A stretch of 64,000 bases of DNA from a virus (lineage: Duplodnaviria > Heunggongvirae > Uroviricota > Caudoviricetes), in IMG/VR virus record IMGVR_UViG_3300049811_000196, positions 1 through 64,000 of that record; one strand, 5' to 3'. Positions 4,412 through 37,870 of the stretch are shown in pieces (within the stretch, counting starts at the first letter, position 1; every line of letters begins with the position of its first letter). The translations under genes were made by a program, and so were the position numbers. Below the pieces are notes generated by a model. The model was not told the DNA's origin, searched no databases, and worked only from the letters and a program-made list of their open reading frames with translations.

Positions 4412-5040
4412 GTGGAGGTGTTGGGTTTCGACTTTTTTGGACTATCTCATCATCTTTTCAGATGTCGGACGCTCTTGATGGTTTTACGATAGAAGCGTCT
4501 ATCACCCATTAGTCTCTGCACCTTTTTCTTCCTACGAAACTTGGCTCAGGATTGTCTAAAATTAGATTTTCCCTGAATTCATCCGATTTTTCAATCAATA
4601 TTTCTATTGAAAGGGGCTCGATTTAACCCAAGTCTTGTCCGTTAACCAATAAATGGACTACACGTTTATTACAACATTGTTTCTCAATGTTCCGAAATAT
4701 TAGGTTTGATATTTGTGAGAACCCCACCTACAAACAACTTGGTCTCAGAATTATTTTAAACGAGCTCTGACCTGTCACTCGTATAACGGACTTCTGTTCC
4801 TGGGTTATATGTCCTAATCGACCCGAAGTAGAGCCCAACTTGGTTAGGCTACTACGTTAGAAGTTGCAAGAATACCTGCAGCTTCCATATTTGCGTAAAC
4901 GTTGCCGTTTGTTTTTACCATCGTAGTTTTAAGTCATAGATGATGTCTGACTACGTGCCCATTTATCAATCAAACGTCAATCAATTCCAGTCACCCCCAT
5001 TATGTCAAATAACTTATATATTAAATATAGAAAAAATTCC

Positions 5041-10063: not shown

Positions 10064-11180
10064 ATATCGTTTTTATTAAAATATAATAAAAACCCCCGTA
10101 AAAAAAAAGTAAAAACCCTGAGATTACAAGTTTTTTTGGTTGACTTTAGGAACATTATTTGTTCTTTCCTTATCCACCCCCTTTTGAAGGGTATCAACCA
10201 GTGACGGTTAATTAGATTAACCACTCCTTAAGTCGTTAGTTACTCTCACGATACTCATTGCTCTTCGAGGATGCCTCCCCGATTAACCCTTGCGAGGTTA
10301 GAGAACTTTCTTGTAAATCATATTGGGATTGGGTCCCTTTATGGCTACGAACAACTCGTAACTATGTAGTCACCTTTCACCAACGACTGACAGACACTTT
10401 TCCATTGTGTTTAAATTTTCAATTTTTCAGGAAAAGAAAAGTTTAAATTTATGGTTTGTGGATTGTGAAGGTCGTGGTCTGTCATATGGCTTTCTTATCT
10501 TTTGAACAAGAAAATACCAAACAACCCTCTGAGGTATCCCTACCTCCATGTTTTTGGATTTCTTCATTATCAGACCTTTGGTAAGGTCTAATAAAGGATA
10601 ACAACAGCACCACCTGTACGAAATCTTATCTTCCCAACAGGATAAATCCTATTGGCTTAGATTTTAAGAACCCCATTACATTGAATAACGCAATAATGAA
10701 GTTGGATGACGACATTTTTTGCATGTATTCTACGAGTTACTCTTATTGGTGTTCCCACCTCAACCAAACGACCCACATCGCTTGGTCATCACATCCTTTC
10801 GCTACGGAGTTACCCTCACTACTCCGGACATAATGATGTCTCGACCGTATACTCGAGCTCGGTTACCCAAGCCGCAACTGATTAGAAACCTAAATCAAGT
10901 CACTTTATACCACTTTCATGGTTTATTTTTAATCTACCTTTCGGTAGATCACCACCTTACGGTGGATGGACTATATACAGCCCAATATTTTTTGTCAAAG
11001 AACTTTATCCGTTTCCGAATTAGAATGTAAAAGTACATAAAAAATCCGAAACAAGAAATATTTTTTAATTTTTAGTTATCCACACGTTATCAACAGTAGT
11101 GATAAATACTTTCGTTTTTCCAAAAAGAAACCCCCCAACAATTGTTGGGGGGATTTTCCTTTTATGACAAGAAAGAAAAT

Positions 11181-14771: not shown

Positions 14772-14952
14772 AAAAAAATTATTTATTTTTTTCTTCCTGA
14801 TAAATCTATTTCAACAATTTCACCATCTTCGGTTTTGAAAAGTTTGGCGGAATGATCCCTACACATTTCTTTCTCGTTCTTTGTTAATTCCTTCAAAGAG
14901 GATAATAATTTATATCCGGGAAATATTCCGAGATATGTTAACAAATATTTTT

Positions 14953-15029
14953 TTTTCATAAAATATTTTTTGTAGTCGGGACAGGATTCGAACCTATGCC
15001 AGGACGGGGCCCGCCGCTACCCTTGCTCT
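14953..15029 (-). pseudogene. tRNA-like gene with non-foldable anticodon arm
   Basis: Good acceptor (AGTTGGG/CCCGACT), D-arm and T-arm. The 27-nt anticodon region (GGGTAGCGGCGGGCCCC) gives no 5-7-5 arm. Confidence 0.4.
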
Positions 15030-15047
15030 ATCCACTAAGCTACCCAA

Positions 15048-15248
15048 CTATTTTTTATTGTAATACCAACCACTTTCAATCTCCTCTCTAAGTTTACCCT
15101 TTTTATCGTAATATTCCTTTGTGGAATTATCTAACGTTTGCCACTCAATAATTTTTTCCACAAGTTCATTCATTGTATCCCCATATAACACCAATTCCCT
15201 ATCCTCAGTTAAATGTTTGATTTCTAATTTCAATCTTGGTTTTTTCAT
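15048..15248 (-). CDS. small hypothetical protein
   Basis: 66-aa ORF. Confidence 0.3.
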   Translation of the reverse strand: MKKPRLKLEIKHLTEDRELVLYGDTMNELVEKIIEWQTLDNSTKEYYDKKGKLREEIESGWYYNKK

Positions 15249-15251
15249 AAC

Positions 15252-15406
15252 ATAGATTTTGCGATCAAGGACAGGAATCGAACCTGCACGGATTTAAAGA
15301 AATAATCTCCAACTACTCACGTTTGTAGTTTGTCCACCGAGTTCCCCCACTCTATACGTTTCTTCAAGGGTACTTACAGCGCGTCTACCAGTTTCGCCAC
15401 TCGACC
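15252..15406 (-). other. interrupted class-II tRNA-like gene (Leu/Tyr-type D-arm), ~155 nt
   Basis: 5' part GGTCGAG-TG-GCGAAACTGGTAGACGC matches the tRNA-Leu acceptor and D-arm. 3' part GCAGG-TTCGATT-CCTGT then CTTGATC pairs 7/7 with the 5' acceptor. About 65 extra nt lie between. Confidence 0.45.
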
Positions 15407-15670
15407 ATAATTGTAAAAAAATAACTAGGTCAGGAATTTCACCTGAGGCTAACTCACGTTAGCGGACCCGCATTTACTGACGGAACATATCTTTCAGGGA
15501 TCTCACACTTAAGTATTTACCCTACGTATCTCCGGATTTCATGCGGCACTACCACATCTACTGTCTCCCAGTTATTTGTGTGAATATCCCCTGAGCCACA
15601 TCAAGTATCTGTTTCGTTTCTTGCGTAGTTTAAAGGAATTAGTAACAGACTTACCTACTCAGATTTTATT

Positions 15671-15710
15671 CACAAAGGTTTCAATGTTTAACACATTTCA
15701 ATCAAAGAAC
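15671..15710. repeat. ~40-nt repeat, copy 1
   Basis: cacaaaggtttcaatgtttaac(a/c)(c/t)atttcaat(c/a)aaag shared with copy 2. Confidence 0.7.
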
Positions 15711-16276
15711 TATTTTAACCATTTTTTAATTGCTTTATTGCTAACACCGTATTTTCTACCTGTTGCGGAATATCCATTTTGAGATACTTCAGACATTAAG
15801 GTGTCAATATTAGGTCTTTCAACTTTTCTTTTTGACATGTAATTACATGTTTTACATTTTTTACCCCACTTTGATTTTTCACAACCACAATCTTCACATA
15901 GATATTTTTTGGGTTCTTTAATCATTATCCATCTATCTTTTTTTTCATCAAATTCCGAAATTTTATCTTTTATTTTTTCAAAAAATAGATCCGGCGAATG
16001 GTGTTCTCTATGACAATTTGAACAAAAAACATCACATTTTTCAAATTCTTCCAATATAAGTTTCATTGAAGTGTTGCTCAATGTTCTTTGATCTAATTGA
16101 AATTTTTTTGTTTTTGGATCTCGATGGTGAAAATCAAATGCCGCCAAATTTTTATCATATCCGCATTTTTGACATTTTCCTCCTCTTAATAAAATAAGAT
16201 GATACTTTCTTTTAAGTGATCTCATTACTTGGTAATCGTAGGTATTTCTTTGGATTTTCATACCAATAAATACCAA
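15710..16276 (-). CDS. HNH homing endonuclease with C-terminal HTH
   Basis: CQKCGY...FDFHHRDPKTK...CSNCHREHH. C-terminal GRKYGVSNKAIKKW. Confidence 0.8.
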   Translation of the reverse strand: MVFIGMKIQRNTYDYQVMRSLKRKYHLILLRGGKCQKCGYDKNLAAFDFHHRDPKTKKFQLDQRTLSNTSMKLILEEFEKCDVFCSNCHREHHSPDLFFEKIKDKISEFDEKKDRWIMIKEPKKYLCEDCGCEKSKWGKKCKTCNYMSKRKVERPNIDTLMSEVSQNGYSATGRKYGVSNKAIKKWLK

Positions 16277-16312
16277 GTAATTATGAAAACTTACATAATC
16301 TTATGTTTATTG

Positions 16313-16386
16313 TGGACCGAGAGGGACTCGAACCCCCGACTTACGCGTTATGAGCGCGTCGCGCTAACCAACTGCACCATCGGTCC
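16313..16386 (-). tRNA. tRNA-Met (CAT)
   Basis: Acceptor GGACCGA/TCGGTCC. Anticodon arm ACGCG-CTCATAA-CGCGT. Confidence 0.85.
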
Positions 16387-16711
16387 AGTAAATTACTCCT
16401 TATTCTAAAACCCTTTTATTTCGGAGTTAACCTGCTATCTTAATGAGTATTTCGAGGGTTCAGGTTAATAACAACTACCACCTTCTAGATAGGGTATGAT
16501 ATGGTTGTAGTAGTTTCAGTCAATCAACCATCGTCCCTCTATGTTTTTTACCATACACCAACCTAAACTACTCACATCTTAGACTGTGAGATGAGGTAAC
16601 GTTAACGGAATGCCTTCCGTGCAGGGATTTCATGTGTTTATCTGACTTCTCTTTCGAGTTCAGCCCCCGTGTTTAATCAACTCTCATTTGTTCAGTATTA
16701 ATCAGTAGTTG

Positions 16712-17300: not shown

Positions 17301-17340
17301 TCTTCACAGAGGGGATCGAACCCTCACGTTACCTTCAACT
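17301..17340 (-). pseudogene. tRNA 3'-half fragment
   Basis: GAGGG-TTCGATC-CCCTC then TGTGAAG. No complementary 5' acceptor (CTTCACA) within 400 nt. Confidence 0.4.
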
Positions 17341-17633
17341 CTTATTTCGTCTGATAGTTCGACGATACGATTCGTTATGTTTTGCAACACATAACTCATT
17401 TGGTAACCATGTGTCTACCCATTCCGCCATATGAAAAAATCCTAGGAATTTAAATATTGAAATAGTTAGACATTGAAGATACTAGGATTACTCCGTATGA
17501 AGACCGAGATAGAAACAGCATAAATAACCGTAACTAATTCCCAATCCCAGTACACCCTGTCAATTCAGGATTAGTATCTTTATGTGAGCGAGTACTTCGT
17601 ACTAAGCTCTTTAAACCGCTTGACAGACGGTAC

Positions 17634-17673
17634 TCACAAAGGTTTCAATGTTTAACCTATTTCAATAAAAGAG
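17634..17673. repeat. ~40-nt repeat, copy 2
   Basis: Directly 3' of tRNA 17672-17744 on the minus strand. Confidence 0.7.
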
Positions 17674-20085: not shown

Positions 20086-20769
20086 CTATTTGATCCACTT
20101 TCTAATCGCGTTGTCACTAACACCAAATTTTCTTCCAACCGCACAATATCCAATTTCATTTACCATTTGAATTAAATTTTCTTTTAGTGGTCTATCAATT
20201 TTTCTATTTGATTTTGAATAACATTCAAAACACTTTTTACTTCTTCTTTTAATTATTTTTCCACAACTACACAAATTATTAATTTTTTCTTGTCTTTTAT
20301 TGTTAATAATTTTCTCACTATTTGAACTTATGATTGTTTTTTTAGTGCTATGATTATGTGTTAATGAATGACAATTAGGACATAGGATTTGTAAATTTTC
20401 TATTTTGTTATTAAACCTATTCCCATCTATGTGATGTAATTCTAATGGTATTTTTTGTCCTAACCATTCTGTTAAATTACATAATTCACATGAATCTTTT
20501 TTTACTCCATCCTCAATCAATTTTTTTCTTAGTCTTGATGATGGGATTATTATATCATTATTCGAATAATATAAAGAAGGTTTGCGATTTTTACCTGATT
20601 TTTTTCCTCTAAGTCCTCTATTACCGATATATGTTATATTTAATTTTTTTAAATAATTTTCTAACGTTATCGGTTTACATTGAAATACTTTACAAATACT
20701 TGATTTAGATTCATTATTATTAATCATTTCAATAATTAAATCTTTTTTTTCTAATATATCATTTCTCAT
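20086..20769 (-). CDS. HNH homing endonuclease with C-terminal HTH
   Basis: LELHHIDGNRFNNKIENLQILCPNCHSLTH. C-terminal GRKFGVSDNAIRKWIK. Confidence 0.8.
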   Translation of the reverse strand: MRNDILEKKDLIIEMINNNESKSSICKVFQCKPITLENYLKKLNITYIGNRGLRGKKSGKNRKPSLYYSNNDIIIPSSRLRKKLIEDGVKKDSCELCNLTEWLGQKIPLELHHIDGNRFNNKIENLQILCPNCHSLTHNHSTKKTIISSNSEKIINNKRQEKINNLCSCGKIIKRRSKKCFECYSKSNRKIDRPLKENLIQMVNEIGYCAVGRKFGVSDNAIRKWIK

Positions 20770-32243: not shown

Positions 32244-32358
32244 ATAACAATATCATTGATTTTATTACACATCAAAGGAAAGACATTATTGCGAATACAC
32301 AAAATATTTTTCTTGATTTTTTTAAAAAAAAAATATAAAAGTAAATATGTTTTACTTG

Positions 32359-32442
32359 TCCCATTGGTCAGATTCGAACTGACGATGTTTATTTCAGATC
32401 TCATGAGAATCTTGTCTTCGACCAACTTGACAACACAATGGG
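32359..32442 (-). tRNA. tRNA (CAT) with extended variable arm
   Basis: Acceptor CCCATTG/CAATGGG. Anticodon arm AGATT-CTCATGA-GATCT. Confidence 0.65.
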
Positions 32443-33977: not shown

Positions 33978-34466
33978 TTATTGATTTAAAAGGTTTATGA
34001 TATTTTCTTTAACTCCTTTCGATTTTATTCCCAATCCATATGGTGACCAAATGAAATTATCCAATAGAAATTGTTCCATGTCCAAGTCATCAACAGCGAC
34101 CCAATTTGTTATTCCCAAATGAGTGTTTTCTTCCAGAAATGTTTTAATTTCTTTTGATCTTATCTTTTCAAGATTTAATCCTCCCCTAAAAGATGGTGTA
34201 AATCCAATAGGTCTTTTTTTAATTCCCCTATTAATAAACATATCACCCATTTCATTTAAAGAACAATGAAATCTCCAATCAGACGATATAACGATTTCAC
34301 AATCTGTCGCATCTATGATTTCATTTAATACCGCAATTGCGTCTTCATCAAAAGGATCAAAAGTTGCGTCAATATGAGACGGATTTGTTTTTCTAACTTC
34401 AAACCGTAATCCCCATTGTTCTTCCAAACATATGACGCCATCATGATCTAAAAATAATACTTTCAT
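33978..34466 (-). CDS. HAD-superfamily phosphatase-like protein (polynucleotide 3'-phosphatase-like)
   Basis: Motif I VLFLDHDGVI. Motif IV VAVDDLD. Confidence 0.45.
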   Translation of the reverse strand: MKVLFLDHDGVICLEEQWGLRFEVRKTNPSHIDATFDPFDEDAIAVLNEIIDATDCEIVISSDWRFHCSLNEMGDMFINRGIKKRPIGFTPSFRGGLNLEKIRSKEIKTFLEENTHLGITNWVAVDDLDMEQFLLDNFIWSPYGLGIKSKGVKENIINLLNQ

Positions 34467-35425: not shown

Positions 35426-35454
35426 GTGTGTTTATTTAATTTAAAAGTTTAAAG

Positions 35455-35544
35455 TGGGGGCGACAGGATTCGAACCTGCGATCGAGAACATTATCTCTCT
35501 AGATTAAAAGTCTAGTACATTGGGCCAACTATGCGAACGCCCCC
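35455..35544 (-). tRNA. tRNA-Lys (TTT) with long extra arm
   Basis: Acceptor GGGGGCG/CGCCCCC. Anticodon arm CTAGA-CTTTTAA-TCTAG. 15-nt variable hairpin GAGA-TAATGT-TCTC. Confidence 0.7.
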
Positions 35545-37147: not shown

Positions 37148-37161
37148 ATATTATTTTTTTG

Positions 37162-37242
37162 TTGGCACGGAGGGATTTGAACCCACGTTTTCAACACCGC
37201 TACAAGTTCTCCATCTTATCAGGATGGGCTGAGTACGTGCCA
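37162..37242 (-). pseudogene. tRNA-Ile (GAT)-like gene without canonical D-arm
   Basis: Perfect anticodon arm CCATC-CTGATAA-GATGG and acceptor TGGCACG/CGTGCCA. Only 8 nt between acceptor and anticodon stem. 24 nt between anticodon arm and T-arm. Confidence 0.4.
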
Positions 37243-37276
37243 ATCTCCATTATGTCAAAGAACCAAAGTTCAAAAG

Positions 37277-37535: not shown

Positions 37536-37798
37536 TTACTTAAAGATCTATGTTTTCTTAAATCTTTTCTGTATAAACAGTTCGGAACAAGGCAATATCA
37601 TCCTGCTTCGCCCATTCACAACGAATAATAAATGACATTTTATGTTGGTACTGTTTCATTTGAAAAATTTAAGTTTTATTTCTTTTACAAAGATATATAT
37701 AAATATTGTAAAAACAAACAAAATTCAAAAAATATTTTTTTTGTGTGGATCATTCCGGGATCGAACCGGAGACATGGACATTTATAATTATAAAATTG

Positions 37799-37870
37799 TG
37801 ATTCCAGTGGGATTCGAACCCACGTAAATACTTTTAGAGAGTACTGTTTTAACCACTAAACTATGGAATC
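37799..37870 (-). tRNA. putative amber-reading tRNA, anticodon CTA
   Basis: GATTCCA-TA-GTTT-AGTGGTTA-AAAC-A-GTACT-CTCTAAA-AGTAT-TTAC-GTGGG-TTCGAAT-CCCAC-TGGAATC-A. All arms canonical, U33, A37. Confidence 0.7.

Follow-up and report, generated by a model that had tools for sequence, protein, structure and literature searches.

The Locus and Its Element

The DNA considered here, hereafter called the window, is a 64,000-nucleotide (nt) stretch from a tailed phage of the Caudoviricetes (IMG/VR virus record IMGVR_UViG_3300049811_000196, positions 1 to 64,000). Its guanine-plus-cytosine (GC) content is 33%, its closest database relatives are uncultured phages of 0.6-0.7 Mb, and it looks like part of a huge phage. 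ARAGORN predicts 27 transfer RNAs (tRNAs) in the window, every one on the minus strand, from 13.9 to 37.9 kb. Our subject is a 145-nt element in this region, 15406..15262, that has the outer parts of a leucine-type (Leu-type) tRNA and, between them, a long interval with no anticodon arm. Because the tRNAs of the window all lie on the minus strand, the element must be read on that strand, and its coordinates are given below in that direction. An earlier note on the DNA had proposed a class II tRNA-like gene at 15252-15406 with about 65 extra nt and no canonical anticodon arm. That description is borne out on the minus strand, with two adjustments: the gene ends at 15262, leaving 15252-15261 as trailer, and the element exceeds a normal class II tRNA by about 55-60 nt.

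The 5' acceptor strand, GGUCGAG (15406..15400), pairs at 7/7 positions with 15269..15263, including two G-U pairs. It is followed by U8, G9, and a Leu-type D arm (15399..15381 in total; the arm itself, GCG-AAACUGGUAGA-CGC, is 15397..15381), whose stem is GCG/CGC and whose loop, AAACUGGUAGA, contains A14, G18, and G19. This 5' part matches annotated phage tRNA-Leu genes in short BLAST alignments. After the 93-nt interval that separates the D and T stems (15380..15288) comes a canonical T arm, GCAGG-UUCGAUU-CCUGU (15287..15271), directly preceded by GU, as in the tRNA-Leu(UAA) of the window at 21705..21616. The 3' acceptor strand, CUUGAUC, and a discriminator G occupy 15269..15262, and CCA is not encoded. 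An extra C (15270), which the earlier note overlooked, separates the T stem from the 3' acceptor strand. This base is present in the window copy only and is missing from the six other distinct sequences of the family described below; with it and its two G-U acceptor pairs, the window copy is the least regular family member.

The first 91 nt of the interval (15380..15290), which start at the D stem and stop two bases short of the T stem, form a conserved middle domain in the place of the anticodon and variable arms. In order, the domain comprises a proposed helix A at the position of the anticodon arm (15380..15336), hairpin B, AACUAC-AAACGUGA-GUAGUU (15330..15311), and hairpin C, a variable-arm-like segment, GGAGA UUAUU UCUUU AAA UCC (15310..15290). 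The GC content of the element is 47.6%, versus 28-30% in the flanking open reading frames (ORFs), and no ORF of at least 40 amino acids (aa) covers it.

A Family in Unrelated Phages

A 21-mer from the insert has one match in IMG/VR, on a 388-kb contig (L067). A 20-mer has eight true matches in JGI metagenomes (L072, L074-L076, and L078-L081), along with two spurious, GC-rich ones, and a gapped signature retrieves two diverged members from IMG/VR (L099 and L103). In reference bacterial genomes, the exact 20-mer has 0 matches, and all 17 matches to the gapped signature are spurious, GC-rich coding sequence. The annotated phage genomes of INPHARED contain nothing matching the middle and yield short tRNA-Leu frame matches only. 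The family so far consists of 12 instances representing seven distinct sequences, with at least six different frames, in unrelated phage contigs. Its members combine a Leu-type frame with the series GCUG..AGUACCC..GGGGGAA(A)CU..GGUGGAC..hairpin B..GGAGAUUANNUCUUUAAAUC, and the window copy has all of these parts.

Conservation is much stronger in the middle than in the surrounding frame. Four frame lineages have middles that are 92-100% identical, and for the two most diverged members the figure is 70-77%. Specifically, the middle of the window copy is 100% identical (91/91) to that of L074, 96% to L067, 92% to L076, and 75% and 77% to L099 and L103, while frames are merely 53-67% identical and stems 33-67%. 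The acceptor stem of the window, GGUCGAG/CUUGAUC, is replaced elsewhere in the family by AGAGAAG/CUUCUCU, AAUAGGA/UCCUAUU, AGUAGAA/UUCUACU, AGUUAGG/CCUGACU, or UGUUGUG/CACAACA. In BLAST comparisons of the window with each homologous locus, similarity is restricted to 114-137 nt at the element, and most other pairs of lineages share the element and short flanks only. The sole stretch common to L074 and L075 is 221 nt long, at 99.5% identity.

The genomic contexts vary as well. In L067/L072, L099, L103, and the window, the element lies in or at the edge of a tRNA array. In L075, L076, L078, and L079, it is the only tRNA-like gene in the few kb of contig available, where ARAGORN finds no other tRNA, and the neighbors of these lone copies are ordinary tailed-phage genes encoding, for example, tape-measure protein and methyltransferases. 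Synteny searches through the flanking ORFs of the window recovered relatives of a 66-aa ORF that have no tRNA-like gene nearby and no relatives of a 181-aa ORF. The earlier note had drawn attention to an adjacent HNH gene, 15710..16276. The gene is real (PHROGs E=3e-22; Pfam makes no call), but it is not conserved beside the element, and no endonuclease is consistently adjacent in the homologous loci.

Under a covariance model, R1, the family is a discrete cluster: its 12 instances score 131-176 bits, with the window copy at 163.6, and all other sequences compared score at most 48. These lower matches cover the frame only and come from genuine tRNA-Leu genes, including that of T4, and from other long Leu-type units. 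The family is missing from Rfam and is not detected by tRNA finders. ARAGORN at default settings calls no tRNA or transfer-messenger RNA (tmRNA) on the element, and the homologues likewise receive no tRNA call. The Rfam tRNA model RF00005 (E<=10) has no match on the window copy, L074, L076, L081, or L103, and the sole weak Rfam match on the element is to tRNA-Sec (18.5 bits, E=1.5).

Covariation of the Frame and of Hairpin B

Pairing was tested for covariation on an alignment (A4) of the seven distinct sequences against a structure that we specified; the extra C of the window was removed for register only. Changes on both sides of a pair occur at 7/7 positions of the acceptor stem, at 2/3 of the D stem (pairs 10-27 and 11-26), at 4/5 of the T stem, and at 4/6 of hairpin B. 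The variants of hairpin B make the point directly: AACUAC/GUAGUU alternates with AACUAU/AUAGUU, AACUGU/ACAGUU, AUCUGU/ACAGAU, and AUCAC/GUGGU. Across the whole structure, 17/35 pairs have double changes. Paired cells amount to 98.4%, compared with 86.6% in shuffles and 41-52% in slid registers, and the observed covariation score was reached by 0/500 shuffles. RNAalifold independently finds both the frame and hairpin B.

The nucleotides of the tRNA elbow are invariant in the alignment, namely U8, A14, G18, G19, U54-U55-C56, A58, and G53-C61, and the T loop keeps UUCGA throughout. The acceptor stem closes at 7/7 pairs in all seven sequences, the window copy needing a 1-nt bulge (C15270) to do so. 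Thus, the element pairs beyond chance, and its frame is real and under selection. For the family as a whole, this compensatory evolution in at least six frame lineages leaves the earlier suggestion of a decaying gene unsupported.

The Fold of the Middle Domain

Helix A, which RNAfold and RNAalifold both propose, starts directly after the D stem and has the form GCUG..AGUA-CCC, a variable purine-rich loop of 15-21 nt, and GGG-GAA-CU..CGGU. As modeled, an extended arm of about 12 pairs with a loop of more than 15 nt could not set an anticodon where the ribosome needs one. Within helix A, the invariant AGUA (15374..15371) lies opposite GAA (15344..15342). We take 5'-AGUA-3'/5'-GAA-3' beside a C-G pair to be the consensus of the loop E or sarcin-ricin bulged-G motif, and on that assumption the arrangement is compatible with such a motif. 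Hairpin B carries a conserved 8-nt loop, A(A/G)AC(G/A)(U/C)GA, which has no U33. In hairpin C, variation is confined to the loop (UUAUU, UUAUA, or UUAGG), and a C-to-U change at 15290 is wobble-compatible. Two alternative pairings fit hairpin C equally, GGAGA-loop-UCUUU and GGA..UUA/UAA..UCC; 2 nt and the T arm follow. A long-range helix, UUGAAGAAA/UUUCUUUAA, was seen by eye and is not used here: L076 shows a mismatch, L099 and L103 have another sequence in place of the 5' strand, and the helix competes with hairpin C.

Where a tRNA would have its anticodon and variable arms, the element has a conserved, folded 91-nt domain, one hairpin of which is supported by covariation. The expanded arm that the earlier note had listed among its possibilities comes nearest to this arrangement, in which both arms are replaced.

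A tRNA-Like RNA That Probably Does Not Decode

We consider the locus to be, probably the gene of a functional non-coding RNA of about 145 nt that resembles a tRNA but is not a decoding one. Of a class II (Leu-type) tRNA, the RNA has retained the top half, with the 7-base-pair (bp) acceptor, the D arm, and the T arm. These parts probably allow RNase P, 3'-end enzymes, and CCA enzymes of the host to excise the RNA from its transcript and stabilize it. The conserved domain would then be the probable effector, binding a conserved host partner, for which the translation or tRNA-handling machinery is the most plausible source.

Several observations weigh against this interpretation. The discriminator base is not conserved (it is G15262 in the window copy and G or A across the family), and the gene encodes no CCA, so the proposal does not extend to aminoacylation. 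The window copy has its 1-nt bulge and its two acceptor G-U pairs. The core helices of the middle never vary and therefore cannot be tested by covariation, which neither supports nor refutes their structure. The minimum free energy of the single sequence is no better than that of shuffles (z=+1.1; a second z-score is +0.8). Finally, unrelated phages could have a 100% identical middle because it was transferred recently, and not because it is constrained. Identical middles in diverged frames could stem from extreme constraint or from an exchange of cassettes by way of the conserved D and T loops, perhaps with help from the homing endonucleases that crowd these regions, and neither origin excludes the other.

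A first alternative grants the function of the family and holds that the window copy is a decaying or impaired allele, which is how the suggestion of decay could survive for this copy alone. The uniqueness of C15270 and the two G-U pairs, set against mostly Watson-Crick acceptors elsewhere, speak for it, and the copy could indeed be mildly impaired or carry an assembly error. Yet its middle is identical to that of L074 at every position, its R1 score falls within the family range, and all of its helices still pair. Moreover, folding could tolerate one bulge at the 65/66 junction, and the extra base could itself be the assembly error. We regard an impaired allele as unlikely.

A second alternative is that the middle is a selfish or mobile cassette with no phage function, spread between Leu-type tRNA-like genes by recombination through the conserved D-loop and T-loop sequences, possibly with the help of the homing endonucleases found in tRNA regions. 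Such a history would account for identical middles within 60%-identical frames, for limits that fall sharply at the D and T stems, and for the isolated 221-nt island shared by L074 and L075. Likewise, L099 holds a window-type middle in an AGTYAGG/CCTGACT frame that elsewhere holds unrelated middles, and the tRNA region of the window contains three HNH endonuclease genes. However, hairpin B changes in a compensatory manner and hairpin C varies in its loop alone, both signs that the RNA fold is selected, and the surrounding frames pair perfectly, so the whole RNA is maintained. The sequence has no terminal inverted repeats or target duplications, and, as noted above, no endonuclease accompanies the element consistently. 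Mobility and function can also coexist. A cassette devoid of function seems to us quite unlikely.

The third alternative, foreshadowed in the earlier note as a small intron, is an intron-bearing or internally processed class II tRNA from which a phage or host activity removes about 60 nt to leave a decoding tRNA. The intact Leu-type frame favors it, as do three further observations: a neighboring tRNA in L067/L072 really has an insertion of about 60 nt within an intact anticodon stem, an RNA-repair-type HAD domain is encoded in the region, and ARAGORN at a lowered threshold (80% stringency, -ps80) proposes Ser(GGA) with a 61-nt intron. The last of these is a poor solution, with a mismatched stem and no variable stem, and ARAGORN with introns allowed (-i) at default stringency finds nothing at the element. 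We also removed, one at a time, all possible internal stretches of 15-114 nt from the copies in the window and in L067 and submitted the roughly 12,000 products to ARAGORN. The 87 and 250 resulting tRNAs spread over more than 12 anticodons and are mutually inconsistent, and we do not interpret them; such scatter is expected, because a good frame was being combined with any AT-rich hairpin. The commonest solution takes AGUAG-UUGGAGA-UUAUU as the anticodon arm of a tRNA-Ser(GGA). Its stem, AGUAG/UUAUU, fails in L076, L099, and L103. Because GUAGUU, which supplies the 5' strand of that stem, covaries with AACUAC, and because the changes from UUAUU to UUAUA or UUAGG are uncompensated, the Ser(GGA) model is excluded.

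Other routes to a decoding tRNA fare no better. No 5-bp anticodon stem with a 7-nt loop (U33, purine 37) can be drawn in the element, and no 7-nt U33 loop is closed by a covarying 5-bp stem. The earlier note had remarked on the presence of CTGTAAG (GTA). This CUGUAAG has no flanking stem, and it reads CUGACAG in L067 (TA replaced by AC) and CUGGUCAG in L099 and L103 (GTC at the same place), so it is not a conserved anticodon loop. Conservation extends across the entire interval from the D stem to the T stem with no contrast between exon and intron, and removal of a block with these limits would therefore leave no anticodon arm. A group I intron was rejected, as the insert is shorter than 100 nt, has no match to a P3-P9 core, and has no flanking anticodon stem; the Rfam Intron_gpI model (E<=10) has no match in 14900-16400. 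A protein-spliced (bulge-helix-bulge) intron is likewise unsupported, as no deletion gives a consistent canonical tRNA, and no splicing endonuclease or RtcB-type ligase is found among the ORFs screened. Taken together, these results make an interrupted decoding tRNA improbable.

Lastly, a miniature tmRNA-like or peptide-coding RNA is hardly credible: the middle of the window copy does contain an open frame of 28 codons, GCU...UAA, that begins with an Ala codon, and phage tmRNAs exist (for example, a permuted one in L109), but a 1-nt deletion in L076, L078, and L079 and indels of 4, 1, and 1 nt in L099 and L103 break the frame, so the RNA is neither coding nor tmRNA-like, and ARAGORN and the Rfam tmRNA models are negative on an element whose full D arm is itself unlike tmRNA. 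In sum, the element is neither a canonical tRNA nor the host of a group I intron; it does not code, and it occurs outside tRNA arrays as well as within them.

Comparison with Known RNAs

The closest analogue of the proposed non-decoding RNA is the species 1 RNA of phage T4, encoded by rnaC. The stable RNAs C and D of T4 are encoded where its tRNA cluster ends, next to the homing endonuclease gene segB, and their functions are unknown (PMC9697503, PMC3014915). In the 139-nt rnaC, the two ends pair, one arm is long and irregular, and there are also a second hairpin and a T arm of canonical form (CCGGG-UUCGAAU-CCCGG); its fold has z=-4.6. Thus, rnaC and the window element share a size of about 140 nt, paired ends, a long arm, a second hairpin, a T arm, a location in a phage tRNA cluster, and an endonuclease neighbor, segB in one case and the HNH gene in the other. 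Unlike the element, rnaC has no Leu-type D arm, and its acceptor pairing is imperfect. It scores 14.7 bits against R1, over part of the RNA, and has no sequence or model similarity to the family. Given this score and the lack of a D arm, rnaC is an analogue and not a demonstrated relative. It is moreover an expressed, stable RNA.

Class II tRNA-Leu shares with the element the 7-bp acceptor, U8, a 3-bp D stem, the 11-nt loop AAAYUGGUAGA, and the T arm, and tRNA-Leu genes give frame-only R1 matches of 36-46 bits. The element differs in having no 5-bp/7-nt anticodon arm and no conserved A73 discriminator, and its D and T stems are 93 nt apart instead of the expected 35 or so. The group I intron tRNA-Leu(UAA) of cyanobacteria and plastids is also an interrupted Leu-type gene, but there the interruption has a group I core and a flanking anticodon stem, both of which are absent from the element with its insert of about 60-90 nt.

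Other RNAs likewise use a tRNA shape for processing, stability, or protein binding in a non-decoding job. Among these, the MALAT1-derived mascRNA and the TMERs of MHV68 differ from the element in belonging to eukaryotic or viral pol III contexts. YrlA has the opposite topology, in that its ends form the Ro-binding stem and its tRNA-like module is internal. The Rfam models for mascRNA and YrlA (RF02553) have no match on the element. Finally, tmRNA, of which phage examples such as that in L109 exist, also places a tRNA-like acceptor and T arm around a long non-tRNA segment; the element has in addition a full D arm, is only 145 nt long, and has no conserved tag frame or detected pseudoknots. Our literature searches on interrupted and tRNA-like phage RNAs, made in an incomplete library, found no account of the family or of the arrays described next.

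Other Leu-Type Units and Scaffold Arrays

A first scan for long Leu-type units, with the pattern GGTAGACGC N80-110 GGTTCGATTCC, returned 66 phage loci, about 25 of which have acceptors that pair at 7/7 positions across the long gap. Contigs L023, L025, and L029 contain arrays of 5-11 units with a common acceptor, AGUCAGG/CCUGACU, a Leu-type D arm, and the T arm ACAGG-UUCGAWUCC-UGU. The units are 69-157 nt long, have unrelated middles, and are for the most part not called by ARAGORN, whose intron calls on them are mutually inconsistent. Related scaffold arrays occur in L027, L037, L040, L049, and L058. A connection to the family is provided by L099, in which the window-type middle sits in an AGUYAGG/CCUGACU scaffold beside another unit with a different middle. 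The arrays and the family together suggest a modular strategy of tRNA-scaffolded RNAs.

We speculate, with little confidence, that phages use the Leu-type scaffold as a general platform for the display and processing of exchangeable RNA cassettes, of which the middle in the window would be one widely shared module. On this speculation, the AGUA/GAA element, a candidate sarcin-ricin/loop E-like motif on an extended "anticodon arm," might decoy or hijack factors that recognize anticodon arms or the sarcin-ricin loop. Candidates include PIN/VapC-type or other tRNA- and rRNA-cleaving defense nucleases and translational GTPases.

The window itself has a second long Leu-type element, of 136 nt (17436..17301, minus strand), which ARAGORN and Rfam miss. 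Its sequence runs UUUCAUA UG GCGG-AAUGGGUAGA-CAC ... GAGGG-UUCGAUC-CCCUC UGUGAAG A, and a helix, GUUACC/GGUAAC, surrounds an unrelated 68-nt middle that has no exact match in IMG/VR. The R1 score is 24.4 bits, for the frame only. A 93-nt tRNA-like frame that the tRNA programs do not call, GAUAGGG ... GACGGG-UUCGAAU-CCUGUC CCUAUC A, lies at 29320..29228 (minus strand).

Unusual tRNA-like genes also accompany the family in other contigs. The interrupted tRNA of L067 (8180..8313, minus strand), which is the same as that of L072 (8985..9118, minus strand), is a genuine tRNA by Rfam (55.6 bits) that ARAGORN does not call; its anticodon stem, CCUGU/ACAGG, is intact, about 60 nt are inserted in its loop, and it lies 8 nt upstream of the family element. 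About 150 nt downstream of the family element in L081 (502..547, plus strand) and L074 (15..60, minus strand) is a 46-nt minihelix made of an acceptor and a T arm, GGAGCAG ... UAGG-UUCGAAU-CCUUC CUGCUCC A (Rfam tRNA, 30.4 bits), which may represent either a tRNA fragment resembling attP or a miniature tRNA-like RNA. In a further contig, L008 (3275..3403, minus strand), a tRNA-Leu(UAA)-like gene with a normal variable arm has a 44-nt hairpin between ACGGACUU and AAAAUCCGU, at what we take to be the site of the group I intron of cyanobacteria and plastids.

Setting of the Window

The window is rich in other RNA genes and RNA-related ORFs, all on the minus strand. These include a GOLLD RNA at 10115..10529 (326 bits), a genuine group I intron at 4432..4635 (79 bits), and, at 37798..37870, a tRNA with a CUA anticodon (an amber suppressor, labeled "Pyl" by ARAGORN). 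In L103, the family element is also paired with a tRNA(CUA). Several class I tRNAs of the window are unusually long, with expanded variable regions: Ile (97 nt, 37161..37257), Lys (91 nt, 35454..35544), and two Met (85 and 82 nt, 32358..32442 and 30450..30531). ORFs interspersed among the tRNAs (33978..34466, 22294..22839, 20086..20769, and 29696..30253) include one with the HAD domain found in "Swiss Army Knife" RNA-repair proteins (E=3e-24), one that is a fragment of a class II aminoacyl-tRNA synthetase of the D/K/N type (E=4e-6), and two HNH endonucleases beyond that at 15710..16276. A scan for promoters and terminators gave results at chance level only.

Non-coding sequence of 234-303 nt precedes both Leu-type elements of the window (15407..15709 and 17437..17670, minus strand). 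Both leaders have an identical 22-mer, TTAAACATTGAAACCTTTGTGA, near the 5' end and a T-run at the end, and the window has no further copy of the 22-mer. In eight IMG/VR phage contigs (L107-L114), the same 22-mer stands at the 5' end of a conserved non-coding element of about 400-470 nt, with the blocks CACAUAAAGAUAC, GGAGUAAUCCUAG, UUCCCUUGAGAAAGGAA, ACACAAAUGAGUUCUCA, and UAAUAAGAAAGAGGGU. Rfam has no match for this larger element, which may be an undescribed large phage RNA. It adjoins a 127-nt tRNA-like frame in L110 and L113 and a permuted, two-piece tmRNA in L109 (3463..3817, plus strand; ARAGORN tag GKVINMFGQPQLRAVA*; Rfam RF04321, 60.3 bits).

Implications

It has been known for fifty years that phage tRNA clusters encode "extra" stable RNAs, the RNAs C and D of T4, for which no one has an explanation. 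The family described here indicates that tRNA-shaped, non-decoding phage RNAs are not a T4 oddity, as it is common to huge phages and to small tailed phages with no other tRNA gene nearby. Genes of this kind are now missed or are liable to misannotation as tRNAs that are broken or contain an intron. Since the conserved domain can itself serve as bait, a modular strategy of this sort would offer a tractable entry to the old question of the "extra" RNAs of phages.

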